Virus record (IMG/VR): IMGVR_UViG_2671181054_000001 | Span: 1-20,122 of that record | Source: a virus | Lineage: Duplodnaviria; Heunggongvirae; Uroviricota; Caudoviricetes | Length of the DNA stretch: 20,122 nt | Strand: one strand, 5' to 3' | Shown: in pieces, positions 2,634 through 18,160 of the stretch | Position numbering within the stretch: position 1 is the first letter of the stretch | Layout: every line of letters starts with the position of its first letter | The notes under the pieces: model-generated | Databases searched by the model: none | What the model was told of the DNA's origin: nothing | The model's input: the letters and a program-made list of their open reading frames with translations, nothing else | Program-made: the position numbers and the translations under genes

Positions 2634-3377
2634 TTATTCTTGAGTAACACTTAAACTCATCTCATTGAATGCAGCCATCCTGTAACCTGCCGGTGTAACA
2701 CCAAAATAACTCCTGAATACGCTGATAAAATAAGATGTAAAATTATAGCCACACTGAGCAGCGATTCTGTTGATGGCGCAACGAGATTGATTCAACAGCA
2801 TTGCTGCCATTCTCATTCTCTCTGTAAGCAACAACTCACTGAAACAGGTGCCTTCTTCTTTCAGTCTTTTTTTTAACAAACTTTCACTGATACATAACCG
2901 CGAAGACACATCTCTCAGAGTCCAGTTTGCTGCAATGTCCGTACGAAACAATGCACTAAGCCTGTCACTAATATTGCCAATACACGCGGTCAGAAACGAC
3001 GAAAACATTTTCTCTGATGAGAAAAACGCCAGACACGAAAAGGAAAGCATTTCCGCTAAATTGTCCGTATGAATCTTTTCCTCACAAAGATAATCAATCA
3101 GGATGCCCATCAATTCTGCCTTGGGAAAACTCACGCAAAGATATCGTGGTATTTGCCGGACTAAAACTACATCCTGTTTTTCGTCTCCACACAACAGGTA
3201 ACGGATAATTGTCGATTCACTGAGACTTATTCGCCGAAAACATTCCGAAAAGGGCAATAACGATCCAGCTCCCCCCCTGACAAGAAGTGCACTACCACTT
3301 TCAAGAGAGAGCTCTTTTCCTTCAAAGAGCACAACAAACGGGGAATGAACAAAAACAACAGAACAGGCTTCATTCAT
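2634..3377 (-). CDS. AraC-family transcriptional regulator, AppY/EnvY-like (about 248 aa)
   Basis: C-terminal double HTH typical of AraC family (WTLRDVSSRLCISESLLKKRLKEEGTCFSELL...CGYNFTSYFISVFRSYFGVTPAGY). Start chosen at MNEACSVVF (AppY-like N-terminus as recalled) because the longer frame would run through the upstream terminator. Confidence 0.75.
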   Translation of the reverse strand: MNEACSVVFVHSPFVVLFEGKELSLESGSALLVRGGAGSLLPFSECFRRISLSESTIIRYLLCGDEKQDVVLVRQIPRYLCVSFPKAELMGILIDYLCEEKIHTDNLAEMLSFSCLAFFSSEKMFSSFLTACIGNISDRLSALFRTDIAANWTLRDVSSRLCISESLLKKRLKEEGTCFSELLLTERMRMAAMLLNQSRCAINRIAAQCGYNFTSYFISVFRSYFGVTPAGYRMAAFNEMSLSVTQE

Positions 3378-3495
3378 ATCAATTGCCCTGACATTACTGG
3401 TCACAAGATAAGTATATATCGATTTACAAAAATACAAGCCGAAAGACCAGTATTCGCAACCACCAGCACGTTTTATGTTCTCTGCCGTTTTTCGG

Positions 3496-3523
3496 ACATA
3501 AAAAACCCGCTCAATGGCGGGTT
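3496..3523 (-). terminator. Rho-independent terminator (minus strand) 85 nt downstream of Q stop; tR'-like
   Basis: Minus-strand RNA AACCCGC-CAUUGA-GCGGGUU followed by UUUAUG; 7-bp stem. Confidence 0.55.
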
Positions 3524-3606
3524 GTATCAAAGTTCATGCGCTTGGTTCACCTCGCGATACAGCTTTGCGAAGCTTAGCAAAATTGAAGCGGTTTATGCGT
3601 AAAAAA

Positions 3607-4149
3607 TCAAGCCGTTTTTTGAGCGAATGATTCTCGCATAGGAATGTATAGCGCATACTCAGCAACGGCCAACCAATTAGCAATTCGCTTTTCGCATGTG
3701 CTAAAACACCACTCTGGGTGTGCATCATTTAGCAATTCAGCCATTTTGCGTTTGGTCATCCCCCGCCCCTCATACCGTTGACGAAGGACGCTAATCAATC
3801 CTGGATGCTCTGCCAGCACCTCACTTATGACCCGATCAATACATAACGCCTCTGCATCAGTACAATGCGCCAGCCAGCTCTTTTGCTTACCGTTAATCAT
3901 ATCCCGCAAAAAAGCCTCAAGTTCAGACTTGTTCAGACCTGCTTTTTTCATCCTCCGGAGCGCCTCGTTAATTGCCGTTTTTGTCAGCTTTTTAGAGGCC
4001 AACAACTGGTTGAACATATTCCCCGTCTTACCGCCGCCAATATACGACCAGCGCCCCCACATGCGCAGTTTTCCCTGAATCCAGACACTTTCCAGCGTGG
4101 TGAGACGAAGGTGTTCCCCGCTTTTGCCTATATTTGTTGGGTAAATCAT
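3607..4149 (-). CDS. Q: Late-gene antitermination protein Q-like (about 180 aa)
   Basis: Position immediately upstream of terminator and lysis cassette; start at MIYPTNIG with GGAGAAAGGAAGG upstream and ATGA overlap with the preceding gene. Family assignment is from position and general resemblance, not verified. Confidence 0.55.
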   Translation of the reverse strand: MIYPTNIGKSGEHLRLTTLESVWIQGKLRMWGRWSYIGGGKTGNMFNQLLASKKLTKTAINEALRRMKKAGLNKSELEAFLRDMINGKQKSWLAHCTDAEALCIDRVISEVLAEHPGLISVLRQRYEGRGMTKRKMAELLNDAHPEWCFSTCEKRIANWLAVAEYALYIPMRESFAQKTA

Positions 4150-4436
4150 AAATAACCTTCCTTTCTCCAGATTTCTTGCGTGCGAAAAACACCTTCTGCA
4201 TGCATCAGGCGTAATTCTTCTTTGGTGTAATCGCTTGTTTTTACCCGCCAGTCGATTAGATCGTGGCATGAGCTACAGGCTATCGCCGCCTGCATATCGT
4301 GTGGTTTTGTCGCTGTTCCGCACGTCCCCGCCAGCCTGTAATGCGCCAGCACAGAGGTTTCGGGATTGTGATTGCAGTAGCCAGGGATTCTGATCTGGCA
4401 CATCTGGCCTTTAGCCGCTTTACGTAAATTCACCAT
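4146..4436 (-). CDS. DUF1364-family nin-region protein (YbcO-like), Cys-rich putative metal-binding nuclease
   Basis: 96 aa; resembles DLP12 YbcO (LRKAA.G..CQ.RIPG.CN.NPETSVLAH.RL.G.CGT.TKP...A.IACS.CH) as recalled; TAATG overlap with upstream gene. Confidence 0.6.
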   Translation of the reverse strand: MVNLRKAAKGQMCQIRIPGYCNHNPETSVLAHYRLAGTCGTATKPHDMQAAIACSSCHDLIDWRVKTSDYTKEELRLMHAEGVFRTQEIWRKEGYL

Positions 4437-5035
4437 TACGCAAACTCCAGTAGTTGTGCGGCCACATTTACAACTTCCTCCTGAGAGGAGAATTTACGGA
4501 ACAGAATCCAGTTCCACAGCATATTCAGTACAGATTTATAAACCTGCTGAAACTCGACTTCGTCCATATTCGCAAACGCGATGGATTTCGCCCGACGCCC
4601 ACGGCTACCATCAGGATAAAAATGCTCTGTGTAAAATCCGGCCTGAATGGTTACCCACTCGCGGAAAGCCTCAAACGACTTTAGCAATGCCGTATCCCGG
4701 GTTCTGCGTGTCGCAACGGTATTCAGATATTGCTCTGCGGCACCACTCAGGGCTGGAGTATGTTCCCGACCTACTGATTCGCACAGGTAATCAACGAAGC
4801 CTGATACCAGTTCTCGTTCTCGAGGCGTGATCGCCCCACCGATCGGAGTCCAGTAATCGAATCCCAGTTGCAGGAGTTTGAAAAAACGCTTGTGGAATGC
4901 ATAGTTACGCACACGCTTAAAGTCTGCGTGTATCCACTCGCCTATTTTGATTTGATGCAGAAAATCGCAACTCTCCGGCGTCGCCGGGAGAAGTAAACCA
5001 GAAGAAGTTTGTTTGACCAGTTGTATATGCGCCAT
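4436..5035 (-). CDS. Phage nin-region protein, possibly DUF1367 family (199 aa)
   Basis: ORF with GGAGA SD 6 nt upstream of ATG; syntenic with YbcO-like gene. DUF assignment is from memory and uncertain. Confidence 0.5.
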   Translation of the reverse strand: MAHIQLVKQTSSGLLLPATPESCDFLHQIKIGEWIHADFKRVRNYAFHKRFFKLLQLGFDYWTPIGGAITPRERELVSGFVDYLCESVGREHTPALSGAAEQYLNTVATRRTRDTALLKSFEAFREWVTIQAGFYTEHFYPDGSRGRRAKSIAFANMDEVEFQQVYKSVLNMLWNWILFRKFSSQEEVVNVAAQLLEFA

Positions 5036-5106
5036 CGTAGTTCTCCGCTGGCGCAGTAGAATGGGTGTTCAGCCCGTTGTGCAGTATACCAGAATTAATA
5101 CCAATA

Positions 5107-5358
5107 CTAACAGGATGCTCTGACTCGCAATTCATCCAGCAGTTTATCATTTCCCATAATGTCACTTAACCTCATCGGTAAAAAAATTGCCTTTCGCCCA
5201 TTACGATACATCATTGATTTTTGGTTTTCAGGGAAGTAATCCATTTCGACTATAACTGACAGGTCATCACGACGTATGACTGCGTATTTGCTACTAAATA
5301 GTTTCTTTATTTTTTCCACGATGCCTCCAAGTTTATAAGTACAAGAGGTTATATCCAC
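5107..5358 (-). CDS. Hypothetical small protein (70-83 aa; start uncertain, possible GTG start with GGAGG)
   Basis: ORF in moderately AT-rich DNA at edge of the island; no family recognised; ATG at 5358 lacks an SD, internal GTG is preceded by GGAGG. Confidence 0.35.
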   Translation of the reverse strand: MDITSCTYKLGGIVEKIKKLFSSKYAVIRRDDLSVIVEMDYFPENQKSMMYRNGRKAIFLPMRLSDIMGNDKLLDELRVRASC

Positions 5359-6207
5359 ATAGAGACAAAAATATTAATCTTAAAAATATTTATTTCACGC
5401 CGTATATTTGTTTGTTTTATGCGCAGGCACAATGACTTTTATTTATTGTTATGCATATAATCAAATAAGTGATTGTTTTTTGCTCTTCAGATTCAGCAGG
5501 CAAAATGCATAAGGGCTGAAAGTGCTCGCATATAATACCTAATTTACTATCACTATATTCTAAGCACTTACCAGGTGATTAGGAACGGAACCCAGTACCG
5601 TGCGAATTTTAATTATGTGCTGGGACCAAACGGTCTGAAATGTCTTCATTGGTGACGATGATTACTCTTACTTTTTGATTTTAATATTCCGGCAATAATT
5701 TTAATAAAAATCTGTTTTAACTCTGCATTTTGCTGATTCTCCGAAGAAACTATCCATCTCTACGAGGAGATCAAATGTCGTTTCAAATCAGTATGTTGAG
5801 TATAAAAATCATGCCATAAATAGAAAACTAATTCGTCTGTATAGCAGTAATATTTCTGAAAATTAGTAGGATACTGTGGTAAAGAAATTCATTTCCAAGT
5901 AATTGGTAAACGCATTTGATTTGATTTTTTGTATGGGCTGTACTGGCTAAATAACATCCGATACTTGCCAGCACTAGCGATTGCTATTGATGAGAACAAT
6001 AGTGGCATCCGGCAAAGCATTTTGTAGGGGGGGTATCAAGCGGTGCTAACGCATTGCGGTAAAAATTCTGTCACACTTGGCGAGCAGGCATAGAGATGAT
6101 CTCATTGAATTGGTTGCAATCACAAAACACTATGCCTGCCTTTTCTATTCGCCCATTGCTGGGGAGTCCACAGCACTACTGCAGCTTTTTAGTACGATGA
6201 ACAGCTA

Positions 6208-8190
6208 TTAAGTAATTTCAGAGGTATCTATCACTTTCTCAGGAGTTGTAGATAACAATTCTTTCATACGCTGATCTTCGGGAGCACGAGAAGACAGGTG
6301 TTCTAAAAACTCACGCCATTGACGCTTTGCATCAGACAGAAGGTCATCCCAAGTTAATGTATACATTTCTTGTTCTCTCAATGTTTTCAGTTTCATATTT
6401 AACGTTGCATTTCTCTTTAAAAAATCATCAGCAACTAGATAACCGGAAACTCGCTTGAATGGACTTCCTGTTGCAGAGTCTAAATAAACTCTGAAAGTAT
6501 TAACATACTCCTCAAAGCGATTGATGTGATCTTTATCTATTTTCAGCCCTGGCCTCATGAATTCAAGTACAAGCAAATGTTCACCACTTGAAAGAACTAA
6601 GTCAACCCTTCCTTTAAAGCTTGGATCGTGTTCAATGTCTGATTCTTTTGCTGCTTCTCTAGCGATATGCTGGACATTTTTCTCAATAGCATAAGTCTCC
6701 CATTTTGGAGCTATCAGCCAAGGATTCTTCGCAATATAGTCTCGAACAGCATTTTCTAATTCTTTAGTGCGTATTCTAGTCTCAAGACCACTTATAGTAT
6801 CAAGCTTAGCTTTAACTGATTCTGCTGTGTGTAAAGCCTGAATTGTATTTGCTTCGATCAATATCTCAAGCAATTTCGTTTCATCCATATCAGGAACGGA
6901 AGCAACGCTTCTTATAAGCTCTTTTAGACGCCCTCCCTCCCATGCAGTGAGGATAGAGTTGCCTATATGCCTAAATTGCTCTGCACCGATTTGTTGGATT
7001 GATGCAATTCGTTTCAAAGCCATTATAACCGTTTTTTTCTCTACACCTAGTTTATCTAGCCTACTTCTGAAATCATCAATTTTACTTTCAATCAGTTTGG
7101 TTTTTTCATCTGCCCGCCGATCTTTCCAGATTTTTAATAATTCGCGAACACGTTTCTGTCCCCACTCTTCTAATTTGGCAAGGTGGTGACTACTCCAATT
7201 CAATCTTTGTCGTTCAGTAGAAATCACATCATCATTAAACTCATCCAAATAATCAGCAATTACAGCCCCTGTCATATATTCAGGACCATTTTGACTTGGC
7301 AACCCTCCAGTCAAGTTAAACATAAACGGCCTTTGTGCTAATTTTTTGTGAGCGTAAATCGAGATACCTTGCAACTCATCATCCTTGATTGTTTCTTTTA
7401 AGAAAAACACTCTCCATTTTATCTCATAACCATCAACGATTTCTTTTCCATACCCCAAACTGTCAATCTCCGTAAGAGAATCAGGTTTTTCATCTACAGT
7501 ATAATCTTTTGGAAAACTATATTCTGCAGTGGCAAGAAAATTTTCGACTGGCATGGGGGTATTATTAATACGAACTAAAAATTCATCGCCGCCAGAATTG
7601 ATCGCAAACCTTCTCGCCATAGATGTAGCAAAAGAAGACTCATTTAACAATCTATTTATTTTCAATGACTTAAGTGTTACTGTTGTTCCATGATTTTCTT
7701 TTTCTAATTCTGAAGGGCCTGTGCGGAAGGTCACATCAATAGCCATACTTTCAGTTTTAACGTAGTCATCTGACGATCTAATCTTATTTATATCCAAAGT
7801 AAAACTAGTTTTTTCACCTGTTTCTTGGCTAGTAGTACAAATTTCTATAATCTCAGCAATACCAAAACCAGCAAACTTTCCGATACCTTTTCTTCCCATT
7901 AAGTCTCGATTGAATAATTTCGACTTCGCTACAGGATTATCTTTCCTTTTATCAAAACCAACCGTAAGAAATTTCTTTTGACATTCTTCAAATGTCATTC
8001 CAATACCATTGTCTTTTATAACAATAGTTCTATTTTCATGCGTGGGTAGTGTAATATTAACTTCGGTTGCATCCGCGTCCCAAGCATTAGAAACCATTTC
8101 AGCTATTGCTGCTGTTGGACTTTGATACATTTGAATACCTAAATGATCAATTATCCTACCATGAAAATTTAGAAATAGTTTATTATCCAT
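6208..8190 (-). CDS. GHKL (Bergerat-fold) ATPase-domain protein, 660 aa, MORC/MutL-like N-terminus with uncharacterised C-terminal region; candidate restriction/defence effector
   Basis: N-terminal motifs AIAEMVSNAWDADATEV (N-box, E-x3-N-A-x-D), IKDNGIGMT (D-x-G-x-G), GRKGIGKFAGFG (G-rich lid). Start ATG has GAGG 6 nt upstream and overlaps the MTase stop by 8 nt. Confidence 0.85.
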   Translation of the reverse strand: MDNKLFLNFHGRIIDHLGIQMYQSPTAAIAEMVSNAWDADATEVNITLPTHENRTIVIKDNGIGMTFEECQKKFLTVGFDKRKDNPVAKSKLFNRDLMGRKGIGKFAGFGIAEIIEICTTSQETGEKTSFTLDINKIRSSDDYVKTESMAIDVTFRTGPSELEKENHGTTVTLKSLKINRLLNESSFATSMARRFAINSGGDEFLVRINNTPMPVENFLATAEYSFPKDYTVDEKPDSLTEIDSLGYGKEIVDGYEIKWRVFFLKETIKDDELQGISIYAHKKLAQRPFMFNLTGGLPSQNGPEYMTGAVIADYLDEFNDDVISTERQRLNWSSHHLAKLEEWGQKRVRELLKIWKDRRADEKTKLIESKIDDFRSRLDKLGVEKKTVIMALKRIASIQQIGAEQFRHIGNSILTAWEGGRLKELIRSVASVPDMDETKLLEILIEANTIQALHTAESVKAKLDTISGLETRIRTKELENAVRDYIAKNPWLIAPKWETYAIEKNVQHIAREAAKESDIEHDPSFKGRVDLVLSSGEHLLVLEFMRPGLKIDKDHINRFEEYVNTFRVYLDSATGSPFKRVSGYLVADDFLKRNATLNMKLKTLREQEMYTLTWDDLLSDAKRQWREFLEHLSSRAPEDQRMKELLSTTPEKVIDTSEIT

Positions 8191-9232
8191 AATCCGCCTC
8201 GTTTTTAGTTATATGTTCTTTGATAAGTTCAGCATGACGCTTAATGAATTCAGGGGGCAATGCATTCCCTATCATCAAAGCAGCCTTGTCTTTACCAAAT
8301 TGAATAGGAAAATAGTAATCACTCGGAAAAGTTTGTAATAATGCAGCCTCTCGAAGAGTTATTGCTCTATCTTGTTCAGGATGTAAAAAACGACCTTTTG
8401 AAGGATTAGTACATCCACTCGTAATAGTTGGAGCTACATCATCCCACCTCATACGACCGTAAACATCGCGAAAACCATTTGGATATCGTTTATGACATGG
8501 CAGCCAATACTCGTAAGGAAGTTGAGAGCGGCTTCCCCCATCCTTAGGAATAAGACTTATAATTTTTTTAACCTTCTCAGTTCTTCTTTCTAATATATTG
8601 TGCAGCGGATCATTGCTATTTTCAGGTCGAGCCAAATGGCCTATTGCATCGCGCACAGTTATTAAATTACTATTTTTTTGAGCACGAGTAAGCTCTCCGT
8701 ATCGCGAAGCAAGTAGTACCATGCGCTTACGTCTTTGTGGCACACCAAATTTACTAGCATCTTCAATTAAAACTGAATTATCATCGATATGATAACCCAA
8801 TTTCTTAAGCTCCGAAGTAAACATGTTTATTCGTTCGTCAAATGCCAAAGCTGGTACATTTTCAACCATTACAACTTTTGGAAAAAAGACTTTAACAAAA
8901 TCTAAAAAATTAAAAATAAGTTCATTTCTCTCATCAAAGACAGCTACTGTTTTATTTTTTGTTCTTAACGAAGAAAATCCTTGACATGGTGGACAACCTG
9001 CCAACAAATCCAGTTCACCTTGCTGAATTTTTAATTGTTTCATTAATTCATCTGGTGATATATTTTTTATATCCCCATTTATTAAGTTAACATCCGGATG
9101 GTTGATTCTATAGGTTTCAGATACAATAGCTTCTTTTTCGATTGCTGATATGACATCAAAGCCAGCCATTTTTAGACCAACTGTCAAACCACCAGCGCCA
9201 CAAAAAAGATCAATTGCTTTCATTTTATGCAT
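8183..9232 (-). CDS. DNA (cytosine-5)-methyltransferase, Dcm-type (349 aa)
   Basis: Canonical m5C MTase motifs: I DLFCGAGG, IV GCPPCQGFS, VI MVENVPAL, VIII QRRKR, X GNALPP. Start could be M1 (9232) or M4 (9223). Confidence 0.9.
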   Translation of the reverse strand: MHKMKAIDLFCGAGGLTVGLKMAGFDVISAIEKEAIVSETYRINHPDVNLINGDIKNISPDELMKQLKIQQGELDLLAGCPPCQGFSSLRTKNKTVAVFDERNELIFNFLDFVKVFFPKVVMVENVPALAFDERINMFTSELKKLGYHIDDNSVLIEDASKFGVPQRRKRMVLLASRYGELTRAQKNSNLITVRDAIGHLARPENSNDPLHNILERRTEKVKKIISLIPKDGGSRSQLPYEYWLPCHKRYPNGFRDVYGRMRWDDVAPTITSGCTNPSKGRFLHPEQDRAITLREAALLQTFPSDYYFPIQFGKDKAALMIGNALPPEFIKRHAELIKEHITKNEADYG

Positions 9233-9268
9233 TCCATTCCATCATGTATACTATGAATCTAATCGAGA

Positions 9269-9297
9269 ATCATATGAAATTGATAGGCTTTTTACAA
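9269..9297 (-). promoter_or_regulatory. Candidate sigma70 promoter for MTase-GHKL operon
   Basis: Minus strand TTGTAA - 17 bp - TATGAT, about 35 nt upstream of the MTase start codon. Confidence 0.3.
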
Positions 9298-9625
9298 TCT
9301 TTATCATCTATTTTTATTGTCTTATGTAATTTTCTTGGTTATTGGTGGAATGTAATCTCATCTGATATCCTATGTCCTAATAGATAGCAATTCTGTATGA
9401 GCTTTTATTGCCCTCATCAGACGCTTCCTTTATGAAGTTGTTCCGAGCAATGCAGCATCGCATTTATCACTTCTTTTATGTGGCTTATGTGTCACGGCGT
9501 TGTTGCCATCAAGGCCAGCGAACATTCCGTGCCTGTCAAACGCCGTGCAAAGCTCGTTAAACGCCCACGTCCGAACTTCGGCAAGGAAGGCATTGGCGCG
9601 GTCAACTCCTGGTAGCCAATCCTGC

Positions 9626-10048
9626 TCACTGCGCCGCCCCCTGAAAATGCCCCTGATAGAATGCCAGCACACGCTGCATAACTTCGCTCTTCCGGCACTC
9701 GCGACAGATTATGTTCATACGCCTGTCATAGCGGCGTATTTCTCCGTCTGGTAATGACCAGATAAGGTCAGGATCAACCACAACCGTTTTTTTCACCTTT
9801 GCCCTGGATAGTTTTTTGCGGGCGTTTTTCCAGTCCTTACGAGCCTGTTCAGAGGGAAATAACCCATAGCCAGAGTTGTATACATCGCCACTGGCAACCA
9901 ACTCTCTGGCAAGAATGCTCATCAGATATCTTGTCGCACCTGTCTTGGCCTCCAGTTGCCTTAACGTCTCGCGCCCACTCTGGCGTACCAGCTCAACAAC
10001 CTGCTCCTTAATTTTTTCACGCTCTTCCTGTGTAAAAACTTTTGCCAT
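9626..10048 (-). CDS. Hypothetical phage protein, possible winged-helix DNA-binding protein (140 aa)
   Basis: Start at MAKVFTQEE with GGAGG 6 nt upstream; C-terminal CRECRK motif; no confident family. Confidence 0.5.
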   Translation of the reverse strand: MAKVFTQEEREKIKEQVVELVRQSGRETLRQLEAKTGATRYLMSILARELVASGDVYNSGYGLFPSEQARKDWKNARKKLSRAKVKKTVVVDPDLIWSLPDGEIRRYDRRMNIICRECRKSEVMQRVLAFYQGHFQGAAQ

Positions 10049-10063: not shown

Positions 10064-10825
10064 TCACTTTTCCGACACAATACGACAGGAGGAGTCGACA
10101 ATCTGTCGAACAATATCCCGGTACTTGTTCAGCTCCCGCAGCGCGGCGCAGACACGCTCCCACTTCTGGACATGATTTTTCGCCCGGCGCAGCTCACGGT
10201 TTGCCATGTGCAGCGATGGTAAAATCATGTCATCCGCCCGCGTTTCGGTAAACGATGGCAGCGACTGCACAATGTCCGCCACAGTTTCTGTTTTAATATC
10301 TTCCTGTGTTGCATCTTTCTGTACCGGCAACGCAACACCTGCTGGCTGAGGAAAGGCTTTAAAATCAGTTTCCGTTACCGATGCAGCTTTCGGCTCTGCT
10401 GGTAAATTATTGCCCGGTATGCAGTAACGAAATTTACCGTTCTGATTTACGCGAATCAGGCGTCCTTTGCTGATTGCCATTGCCAGCGTTGAAGCAAGTT
10501 TGCGGGATGTGGTACCGAACAGCGTAGCTAGTTCATCCGCCGTTTGTGGTCCGCGTTGTTCAATCGTCGCGGTTAAATCGCACTCTGAGATTTTCGCTAC
10601 TGTTGCCGTGGTGGTTTCTTCCGGCAGTTCTGCCTGCATTGGCTGTTCCTGCTGAACGTTGTTATCAGCCACACGCCAGGTGTACGCGCTTTTATCAACG
10701 AAACCAGCTTTTTTCAGTTCCCATAGTTCGTTCAGCACTTCTTCACGACTGATATCAAGTCGCGCAGCAAGTTCTATGGATGTGGCTTTTCCCATTGCTT
10801 TCAGTGCGTCAAAAACAGTCTCCAT
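10064..10825 (-). CDS. Phage protein with N-terminal winged-helix-like domain (DUF1627-like, YdaW-like), about 254 aa
   Basis: Start at METVFDALK with GGGAGGA 8 nt upstream; position after DnaC-like gene as in Rac ydaV-ydaW. Family from memory. Confidence 0.5.
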
Positions 10826-15724: not shown

Positions 15725-18160
15725 ATGAGCACTGATAAAGAAGAAATTGCACTATATTACGAAGCCAAAAATGACAAAGTCAGAAAACGTCTTGGGATTA
15801 AAGGCGGTTTTTACTGGCGCACAGCAAAAAAATTATCGGTTGCAATATCACGCGGTGTTGTCGCAATGGACGATGCCGGATTTGACGAAGAGGATTTTAA
15901 AAAACCTGTTCGCGTCCATTTACCCGTTGTGAATGACCTTCCTCCGGAAGGCGTGTTTGATATCGAATTCTGCAACCGATACGAAAAAGGCGGGGAAGAT
16001 GGTATCACAATGGTACTTATCGCGCCCTCGCCCTCTGTTCAGGATAAACCAGCCAGCACTGACAATACCAACGTCAACGGCGAAGACCTGGCTGAGATTG
16101 AGGAGAACATGCTCCTGCCGGTTTCAGGTCAGATTCTGCCTGTTCGATGGCTGGCACAGCACGGCAGCGAAAAACCGATCACACACGTTTCGCGGGACGA
16201 ACTGCGCGCATTACATAACGCACAGGATGAAAAACTTCCCGCCGTTACCGCGCTGGCTATCTCAAATAAAGCAGCGCAACTCGAACCGCTGGAGATTCGC
16301 GATCTCCACAAACTGGTGCGAGACACTGACAAAGTTTTCCCCGCCCCCGTAAATTCGGACCTGGGACTGATAACCTCTTTTATCGAAGCATACCTGGACG
16401 CCGACTACACCGATCGCGGTCTGCTGACAAAAGAGTGGATGAAAGGAAATCGTGTTTCGCGTATCACCCGTACGGCTTCCGGTGCAAATGCCGGTGGCGG
16501 GAACAAAACCGATCGCAATCCGAATTTAGTACACACCTTCGATACGCTGGATGTGGAGATTGCAGCAGCCACACTTCCGATGGATTTTAATATTTATGAA
16601 ATTCCGGGCAGCGTTTATCGTCGCGCAAAAGAAATCGTCCTGAAAAGAGAAAGTCCGTTCAAAGAATGGTCCGCAGCACTTCGCGCAACCCCGGGTATTC
16701 TGGATTATTCCCGCGCCGCTATTTTTGCACTTATCCGGAGCACTCACCCTGAGTTTTATCACTACCCGGGACGCCTTCAGGGGTATATCAACGCCCACTT
16801 AACGGAGACTGATCACGAGAACCCCAGCAAGGAAACTCTCACTGCTGCACGACATACACCGGAAAAAGACATCCTGGAAGAAGTTAACCGCGAACTGGCT
16901 GCTGAACGCGAAACAGAAGAAGAAAAAAATAATGAGGAAAAATCACAACCGTCTGACGCAATGGCAGATGAACAGGCAACGACTGAAGCAATGGGACAGG
17001 ATACAACTGAATATCGCCAGGACACACAATCGCTGGATACTCAGGCACAGATAAATCCGGTTAATCAGGTAAAAGTTACCGCTGACGAAGTAAACAAAAT
17101 TATGCAGGCAGCCAATATCAACCAGCCTGATGCCGACAAAATACTGGCAGTCCATCGCGGTGAATTCGTTGACGGAATTAGCGACCCGAATGATCCGAAA
17201 TGGGTTAAGGGGATTGAAACCCGCAATTCTGTGAACCAGAACCAGCCCGAATCGGAACAAAACAGCCAAAATGCGTTACAAAACGAGCCAGAAACGAAAC
17301 AGCCTGAACCAGAAGAGCAACAAGAACCGGAAAAAGTCTGCACCGCCTGCGGTCAGACCGGCGGCGACAACTGTCCTGACTGTGGCGCGGTGATGGGCGA
17401 CGCAACATACCAGGAAACATTCGATGAAAAAAATCAGGCTGAAGTTCAGGAAGATGATCCGGAGGAAATGGAAGGCGCTGAACATCCACACAAGGAGAAC
17501 ACTGGCGGCAATCAGCATCACAATAGCGATAATGAAACTGGCGAGACGGCAGATCACTCAATTAAGGTGAACGGTCATCACGAAATCACATCCACCAGCA
17601 GGACGTGTGACCATCTAATGATCGACCTTGAAACCATGGGAAAAAATCCTGATGCCCCGATCATCTCAATAGGTGCAATATTTTTCGATCCGCAAACCGG
17701 AGATATGGGACCGGAATTTAGTAAGACTATCGATCTGGAAACTGCTGGCGGAGTCATTGATCGGGACACCATTAAATGGTGGCTTAAGCAATCACGCGAA
17801 GCGCAATCTGCCATTATGACCGATGAAATCCCGTTAGATGATGCACTACTGCAATTGCGGGAATTTATCGACGAAAACTCCGGTGAATTTTTTGTTCAGG
17901 TCTGGGGTAATGGGGCCAACTTCGACAACGTGATTTTACGCCGTTCATACGAACGACAGGGTATCCCCTGCCCGTGGCGCTACTGCAACGATCGCGATGT
18001 ACGCACAATCGTTGAGCTGGGGAAAGCCATAGACTTCGATGCCAGAACTGCTATCCCATTCGAAGGTGAGCGCCATAATGCACTTGATGACGCTCGTTAC
18101 CAGGCAAAATACGTTTCAGCTATCTGGCAAAAACTGATCCCGAGTCAGGCTGATTTTTAA
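15725..18160 (+). CDS. RecE-like (exonuclease VIII-like) large prophage protein whose C-terminal domain is a DEDDh (DnaQ-like) 3'-5' exonuclease fold; 811 aa
   Basis: N-terminal and middle regions resemble Rac RecE as I recall it (NTNVNGED..EIEENMLLP..RWLAQHGSEKP..THVSRD; GLLTKEWMKGNRVS.ITRTASGANAGGGN; Cys4 ribbon CTACGQTGGDNCPDCG). C-terminus has Exo I DLETMG, Exo II GNGANFD, Exo III HNALDDA. Confidence 0.7.
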   Translation: MSTDKEEIALYYEAKNDKVRKRLGIKGGFYWRTAKKLSVAISRGVVAMDDAGFDEEDFKKPVRVHLPVVNDLPPEGVFDIEFCNRYEKGGEDGITMVLIAPSPSVQDKPASTDNTNVNGEDLAEIEENMLLPVSGQILPVRWLAQHGSEKPITHVSRDELRALHNAQDEKLPAVTALAISNKAAQLEPLEIRDLHKLVRDTDKVFPAPVNSDLGLITSFIEAYLDADYTDRGLLTKEWMKGNRVSRITRTASGANAGGGNKTDRNPNLVHTFDTLDVEIAAATLPMDFNIYEIPGSVYRRAKEIVLKRESPFKEWSAALRATPGILDYSRAAIFALIRSTHPEFYHYPGRLQGYINAHLTETDHENPSKETLTAARHTPEKDILEEVNRELAAERETEEEKNNEEKSQPSDAMADEQATTEAMGQDTTEYRQDTQSLDTQAQINPVNQVKVTADEVNKIMQAANINQPDADKILAVHRGEFVDGISDPNDPKWVKGIETRNSVNQNQPESEQNSQNALQNEPETKQPEPEEQQEPEKVCTACGQTGGDNCPDCGAVMGDATYQETFDEKNQAEVQEDDPEEMEGAEHPHKENTGGNQHHNSDNETGETADHSIKVNGHHEITSTSRTCDHLMIDLETMGKNPDAPIISIGAIFFDPQTGDMGPEFSKTIDLETAGGVIDRDTIKWWLKQSREAQSAIMTDEIPLDDALLQLREFIDENSGEFFVQVWGNGANFDNVILRRSYERQGIPCPWRYCNDRDVRTIVELGKAIDFDARTAIPFEGERHNALDDARYQAKYVSAIWQKLIPSQADF

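Follow-up and report, generated by a model that had tools for sequence, protein, structure and literature searches.

A methyltransferase–GHKL nuclease gene pair in a lambdoid prophage as a candidate restriction–modification module

The DNA analyzed here (the window) is a 20,122-nt stretch of a Caudoviricetes virus (IMG/VR record IMGVR_UViG_2671181054_000001, positions 1 to 20,122). Its minus strand carries an adjacent pair of genes encoding a 5-methylcytosine (m5C) DNA methyltransferase (MTase) and a 660-amino-acid (aa) protein with a GHKL-type ATPase domain. The MTase open reading frame (ORF) runs from 9232 to 8183 and the GHKL ORF from 8190 to 6208, with an overlap of 8 nt (ATGGATAA). The translational-coupling junction (8183..8200, minus strand), read directly from the sequence, is CGAGGCGGATTATGGATAA. 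In this segment, the ATG of the second gene lies at 8190–8188, the stop codon TAA of the MTase gene at 8185–8183, and a GAGG sequence at 8200–8197, leaving a 6-nt spacer before the ATG. An earlier annotation made from the sequence alone (the original prediction) had described two co-oriented genes with an 8-nt overlap and a GAGG inside the 3′ end of the MTase gene, and this layout was confirmed. The overlap with its internal Shine–Dalgarno sequence would tie translation of the second gene to prior translation of the MTase.

The MTase gene (8183..9232, minus strand) encodes 349 aa from its first ATG; the RefSeq start lies 9 nt later (9223) and yields 346 aa. The product was assigned to the C-5 cytosine methyltransferases by PF00145 (E value, 1.3e-55; 189.5 bits with a cut-off of 22) and TIGR00675 (155.7 bits with a cut-off of 100.65), and it also matched the PADLOC MTase_II model (2.3e-81). 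The catalytic motifs FCGAGG, PPCQGFS, ENV, QRRKR, TLREAALLQTFP, and GNALPP are intact in the translation, and motifs I (FxGxG), IV (PC), VI (ENV), VIII (QRR), IX, and X of the family are all present. The enzyme had been predicted to be of the Dcm type, which is correct at the family level but not in the sense of orthology: the Escherichia coli Dcm model NF007772 gave 31.3 bits against a cut-off of 710, and identity with the CCWGG-methylating Dcm was rejected. Many proteobacterial homologues share approximately 60% identity with the MTase, and one of them bears the name “modification methylase HgiDII” in its source record. M.HgiDII is reported to methylate GTCGAC; this sequence occurs once in the window (position 10094), a count that is uninformative for guessing the target.

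The 660-aa protein (6208..8190, minus strand) is a restriction nuclease candidate of the BbrUII/HgiDII–paraMORC3 superfamily, as judged by profile and homology searches. Profile NF050001 (“BbrUII/HgiDII family restriction enzyme”) matched it over aa 13–634 (model positions 9–647 of 659; E value, 2.5e-89), with a score of 300.6 bits that lies below the curated cut-off of 550 bits of this NCBIfam equivalog model, so that equivalence to BbrUII/HgiDII is not established and the relation stands at the superfamily level only. Two PADLOC REase_II models also matched the protein (PDLC03419, 1.2e-52; PDLC03485, 5.3e-33) and, together with the MTase_II match, demonstrate that standard defense-finder models recognize both genes as Type II restriction–modification (R-M) components. 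The view that the effector is not a recognizable standard restriction endonuclease was thus contradicted by the full-length NF050001 match, the two REase_II models, and a C-terminus with the PD-(D/E)XK fold. In line with the original prediction, profile searches assigned the protein to no non-defense GHKL family such as MutL or the histidine kinases. Identity as MutL, HtpG, or a histidine kinase was rejected, since the family models scored far below their cut-offs (MutL TIGR00585, 38 versus 180 bits; HtpG, 34.5 versus 371; PRK14083, 46 versus 455) with matches confined to aa 11–195.

Four regions were distinguished in the 660-aa protein, all encoded on the minus strand. The GHKL (Bergerat-fold) ATPase domain (aa 1–200; 7591..8190) matched Pfam PF13589 HATPase_c_3 at aa 25–169 (9.8e-24), and GHKL motifs I–IV are intact, including the previously noted EMVSNAWDAD (E31, N35, D38), DNGIG (D60, G62, G64), and glycine-rich lid GRKGIGKFAGFG (99–110). 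Conservation was assessed in an alignment of 108 sequences, comprising 106 cluster representatives, the window protein, and the ParaMORC3 protein of phage PhiR44_1. Residues E31, N35, D38, D60, G62, G64, K101, G102, G104, and K105 were each conserved in at least 107 of the 108 sequences, and G108 in the lid (K101–G110) varied. A beta-rich, transducer-like middle domain (aa 201–333; 7192..7590) was modeled by AlphaFold2 with a predicted local distance difference test score (pLDDT) of 80–93, and its K283 is K or R in 107 sequences. In Foldseek comparisons, alignments of approximately 390 columns covered the N and M domains of TRAP1/Hsp90, and MORC3 was aligned with a TMt of 0.55. The following region (aa 334–476; 6763..7191; pLDDT 62–92) consists of four long helices without a family match and possibly serves in dimerization or DNA contact. 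The C-terminal PD-(D/E)XK-fold nuclease domain (aa 477–634; 6289..6762) contains E503, R528, D530, E543-F-M545-R546-P547, H555, R558, and Y562, and its fold resembles that of SduA. A sequence search of solved structures matched only GHKL N-domains, MutL, and Hsp90.

The catalytic E-D-ExK motif of this nuclease domain is not complete. A tblastn search of phage genomes identified the ParaMORC3 protein of E. coli phage PhiR44_1 as a homologue (26% identity over 93% of the query; E value, 3e-47), with a Dcm gene adjoining it. In the pairwise alignment, R-I-D ... E-M-K-R-P of ParaMORC3 stands opposite R-V-D530 ... E543-F-M545-R546-P547 of the window protein; D530 and E543 are therefore present, and Met545 is found where the catalytic Lys is expected. 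Among the 108 aligned sequences, position 545 is Met, Val, or Thr in 30, all of which have His at position 555, ten residues downstream. Lys occupies position 545 in 66 sequences, only two of which have His555; in most of the Lys-type sequences, residue 555 is Glu or Asp and residue 558 is Gln. D530, E543, R528, R546, and Y562 stay conserved in the aligned sequences. A scan of the related loci found ExM or a close variant in most relatives with at least ~34% identity and ExK only in relatives with at most 35%. From this pattern, we infer a rebuilt rather than a dead active site, in which His555 probably takes over the role of the canonical Lys in the Met-type clade. No description of this Lys-to-Met/His switch was found in the searchable literature.

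To evaluate the pairing of the two genes, 85 related loci were examined (80 species genomes and five others), and an MTase was counted if it lay within 5 kb of the nuclease gene. A first census with a single query under-counted, as exemplified by locus L031 with its divergent Dcm, and was repeated with four more queries. An m5C MTase accompanied the GHKL nuclease gene in 76 of the loci, from both bacteria and archaea. In 33 loci, the MTase gene immediately precedes the nuclease gene (gap of at most 35 nt), and in 17 the two overlap. Klebsiella (L010, 91% identity), Paraburkholderia (L004, 58%), L005 (51%), L023, L028, and L084 share the exact 8-nt overlap of the window. The order is nuclease before MTase in 16 loci and MTase, Vsr, nuclease in six, and close to half of all loci contain a Vsr gene. 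The conserved overlap and the frequency of MTase linkage indicate that the pairing is not due to chance. Of the nine loci without an m5C MTase, three are from Streptomyces, one is from Sphingomonas, and three are from Cenarchaeum; another has an N6 methyltransferase, and the last is truncated by the end of its contig.

Several related loci have unusual arrangements. Two metagenome contigs (L012 and L013) represent a duplicated version of the system: two paralogous GHKL-nuclease genes (639 aa and 626 or 635 aa) in opposite orientations, with approximately 1.2 kb between them, and then a Vsr gene. A Lys-type relative in L011 (935–4854) lies in a four-gene operon with a helix-turn-helix protein, an m5C MTase, and an HhH-GPD glycosylase, which may replace Vsr in the repair of T:G mismatches. 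In the window, no Vsr remnant was found 3′ of the nuclease gene by tblastn with the Vsr of L004 or by six-frame reading of 5300–6210.

The cassette was present at 99.7% identity or higher in 19 of 5,426 complete E. coli genomes, always on the chromosome and with both genes together, and a Rac-type prophage was its location in those copies inspected for context. Elsewhere, the pair directly follows a lambda P-like replication gene in a Klebsiella lambdoid prophage, is inserted between gpA and the portal gene, a site for accessory genes, in E. coli prophages of the P2 type and in Yersinia phage P37 (67% identity), and adjoins an integrase in Paraburkholderia. The pair is a recurrent cargo of temperate phages and would add one more defense cargo to those carried in the nin region of lambdoid phages and at the accessory-gene site of P2. 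Comparison with the Klebsiella copy gave ratios of nonsynonymous to synonymous substitution rates (dN/dS) of 0.021 for the nuclease and 0.054 for the MTase, ratios that are rough because dS is saturated, and by this measure both genes are under strong purifying selection. In the 19 E. coli genomes, RefSeq names the products “DNA cytosine methyltransferase” and “ATP-binding protein,” and close homologues of the nuclease, where named by their source, are nearly all “ATP-binding protein.” This annotation is uninformative for a gene that would be the restriction half of an R-M pair.

In one of these strains, E. coli O177:H21 (L002, CP016546), both genes of the cassette are naturally knocked out. 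An ISVsa5 insertion with a 9-bp target duplication at window 6323–6331 removes the last ~40 residues of the nuclease, and a 1-nt deletion at window 9063 frameshifts the MTase near residue 57. An R-M pair would be expected to decay in this order. The other 18 copies are annotated without pseudogene flags.

We interpret the gene pair as a two-gene R-M module that forms an accessory gene cassette of a lambdoid prophage, with the MTase marking a short sequence and an ATP-gated dimeric GHKL nuclease cutting unmarked DNA, and assign this reading a probability of about 0.72. The short recognition sequence would be marked by the MTase in the DNA of both the host and the prophage. Its 660-aa partner would be the restriction enzyme, a homodimeric GHKL ATPase clamp like MutL, Hsp90, and MORC. 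Driven by ATP, the N-terminal domains would close around DNA and thereby position or activate the C-terminal NucS/Shedu-like PD-(D/E)XK nuclease, which would then cut DNA lacking the methyl mark. Cleavage would accordingly be site specific and blocked by methylation, the nuclease may be toxic to cells that lack the MTase, and the module may protect its host against phages. The suggestion that a restriction-like defense module is carried on a temperate phage is thus supported at the sequence level by family assignment, conserved linkage, purifying selection, and recurrent prophage carriage.

Several points weigh against this interpretation. The NF050001 score of the window protein does not reach the equivalog cut-off, nor does that of any of 20 other relatives (233–392 bits). 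With the canonical Lys replaced by Met545, nuclease activity is not assured, and no experiment on the Met-type clade was found in the searchable literature. The nuclease can also exist without a cognate MTase, as in the nine loci described above. In one of them (L035, Streptomyces flavochromogenes; 3513–4814), a Met-type homologue without a nearby m5C MTase adjoins an AspBHI-like m5C-dependent Type IV enzyme (RE_AspBHI_N, 3.1e-34; Mrr_cat), an arrangement that suggests that the nuclease is able to work without a cognate Dcm. Expression of the cassette is a further concern. A promoter-like site found by consensus scan only (TTGTAA-17-TATGAT; 9269..9297, minus strand; ~37 nt upstream of the MTase ATG) could be an own promoter of the cassette for expression in the lysogen, but promoter evidence is weak because such sites are not enriched in the region over shuffled sequences (8 observed versus 16 ± 4, i.e., fewer than expected). 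The AT-rich island may also be silenced in E. coli. Finally, the MTase deletion in O177:H21 falls within a homopolymer and may reflect a sequencing error.

Among the competing explanations, the best supported is that the 660-aa protein is a Shedu-type (type I-D, paraMORC3) immune nuclease that senses an infection-related DNA feature instead of a particular unmethylated sequence. The MTase would then serve as an accessory self-mark or independently in anti-restriction and would not be the strict antidote to a Type II enzyme; we consider this explanation unlikely. The paraMORC3 family was defined by Iyer, Abhiman and Aravind in 2008 as GHKL and S5 domains with a RecB-like nuclease bearing the E-D-ExK motif (PMC2292703), and today it is classified as Shedu type I-D (GHKL + DUF4263). 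VcSduA, a GHKL-Shedu protein of Vibrio cholerae and a member of paraMORC3, has been tested genetically: the single gene confers protection against T1-like phages, and both E27 and K557 are required (PMC12137116, 2025). The window protein shares the GHKL module, the middle domain, and the C-terminal RecB/NucS-like nuclease with this family, is homologous over its full length to the phage protein annotated as ParaMORC3, and has a C-terminal fold resembling SduA. Shedu genes are also often found inside R-M loci (bioRxiv 10.1101/2023.08.10.552793), and the loci without an m5C MTase keep a Shedu-like, methylation-independent mode alive. VcSduA has E-D-ExK and acts alone; the window protein has ExM with His555, and its gene is coupled in translation to that of an MTase. 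Against the Shedu explanation, the MTase gene in the clade nearest the window is immediately upstream and often overlapping, and the two genes never occur singly in the 19 E. coli genomes. Vsr, which partners m5C methylation in repair, is often found with the pair, and the best curated match is a restriction-enzyme family with REBASE-listed Type II R-M members. The PADLOC Shedu models did not match the protein, and Pfam SduA_C (PF14082) reached only a non-significant E value of 0.098; a C-terminal DUF4263/SduA_C domain is not detectable by sequence. Canonical Shedu SduA and NucS/EndoMS lack a GHKL module altogether, and the similarity to them is at the level of the fold only (13–21% identity).

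The nuclease domain could instead be inactive through loss of the catalytic Lys, leaving an ATP-driven, non-cleaving DNA clamp that would, for example, compact or silence unmethylated incoming DNA in the manner of MORC. We regard this as very improbable. Eukaryotic MORC relatives do act without cutting DNA (PMC2292703), and the residue replaced by Met is the Lys whose mutation abolishes VcSduA function. On the other hand, D530, E543, R528, R546, and Y562 remain conserved, and the presence of His555 in all 30 sequences with Met, Val, or Thr at position 545, versus two of the 66 Lys-type sequences, looks like remodeling rather than decay. The whole-gene dN/dS of the nuclease likewise argues against an inactive domain. 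Active PD-(D/E)XK enzymes without the lysine are also familiar, BamHI and BglII being examples.

Orphan m5C MTases are frequent in temperate phages, but the explanation that this MTase is such an orphan shielding phage DNA from host restriction beside a functionally unrelated GHKL gene, an outcome that would have undone the original prediction, is hardly credible given the linkage in 76 of 85 loci across bacteria and archaea, the conserved overlap, and the constant co-occurrence of the genes in E. coli.

The kind of module to which the R-M reading assigns this pair is not new; it has been catalogued since 2008 and is recognized by current profile libraries. The link between MORC-like GHKL ATPases and R-M loci that the original prediction mentioned had been described by then, with paraMORC families in R-M operons (PMC2292703). 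A GHKL domain was described in R.HgiDII in the same year, N-terminal to a distinct C-terminal domain (PMC2441816), and the named BbrUII/HgiDII members are REBASE-listed Type II R-M systems. The window protein resembles this family in its full-length profile match, its GHKL plus C-terminal architecture in a single polypeptide of ~650 aa, and its partner m5C MTase of ~350 aa. It differs in its score of 300 versus 550 bits and, compared through the profile model, is placed in a sister clade rather than as an equivalog. MutL, Hsp90/TRAP1, and MORC share the Bergerat fold, motifs I–IV, and a following middle domain with a conserved Lys/Arg, but their C-terminal halves are unrelated to that of the window protein.

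The remaining interest lies in the role of the ATPase in HgiDII-type enzymes and in the Lys-to-Met/His active-site switch. The role of the ATPase in restriction was raised as an open point by Orlowski and Bujnicki in 2008, and a role of the GHKL ATPase in HgiDII-type restriction enzymes was not reported in the searchable papers. The E. coli copy and the natural knockout strain together provide a convenient system for comparison, and the switch offers a specific mutational test. As a more tentative idea, and one we hold to be doubtful, the Met-type clade may be a distinct ATP-gated restriction nuclease with a rebuilt PD-(D/E)XK site that bridges, in evolution and mechanism, single-gene Shedu/paraMORC3 and methylation-protected Type II restriction. 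If so, the pair would be a tractable E. coli model for the role of the GHKL clamp in restriction.

The genetic setting of the pair was determined by PHROGs and Pfam scans across the window. In order, these identified a head protein, Bor, endolysin, holin, an AraC-like regulator, the Q antiterminator, an HNH protein, NinB, an 83-aa protein of unknown function, the R-M pair, a Ren-like protein, DUF1627, a DnaC-like loader, an O-like initiator, CII, Cro, CI, RecE, Xis, and integrase. The host element is thus a lambdoid prophage with the cassette in its early-right (nin) region. The best coverage of the window by any complete E. coli genome was 57% or less, indicating that the prophage is a mosaic. 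The window also contains a gene for an 811-aa RecE-type exonuclease VIII (15725–18160, plus strand), part of which (16912–17555) is only ~77% identical to recE of the Rac prophage in L001, and this partial identity indicates a mosaic rather than Rac itself.

The composition profile revealed a low-GC accessory island of approximately 4.5 kb (5060..9610) between ninB and the ren-like gene, with a GC content of 34–41% versus ~50% in the surrounding DNA. The island consists of the 83-aa ORF (5358..5107), approximately 850 bp free of ORFs, and the R-M pair, and only its edges (5000–5060 and 9610–9700) are common to other phages. Direct and inverted repeats in the island were limited to short chance-level pairs, and no RNA family was detected with Rfam at an E value of 0.1 or lower in 4900–9800. 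The ORF-free segment (5359–6207) is AT-rich, lies downstream of the nuclease gene, and has no ORF of 60 aa or more. It includes an inverted repeat formed by GCAGGCATAG (6087–6096) and CTATGCCTGC (6131–6140), followed by CTTTTCTATT on the plus strand, which resembles a terminator facing the cassette. The segment 5001–5480, covering the ninB start, the 83-aa ORF, and part of this spacer, shows 94.4% identity to a sequence of Actinobacillus phage vB_Apl-pPE4 (PP818812), and Actinobacillus is an unexpected host for enterobacterial lambdoid DNA.

A second accessory gene is found elsewhere in the window. Between the Q antiterminator and the holin gene, a 298-aa AraC-family regulator is encoded at 2634–3530 on the minus strand (HTH_18, 1.8e-13; HTH_AraC, 5.8e-13). 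No tRNA genes were found in the window, and the regulator occupies the accessory-gene site just downstream of Q, where the Rac-type prophage of L001 carries tRNA genes instead.

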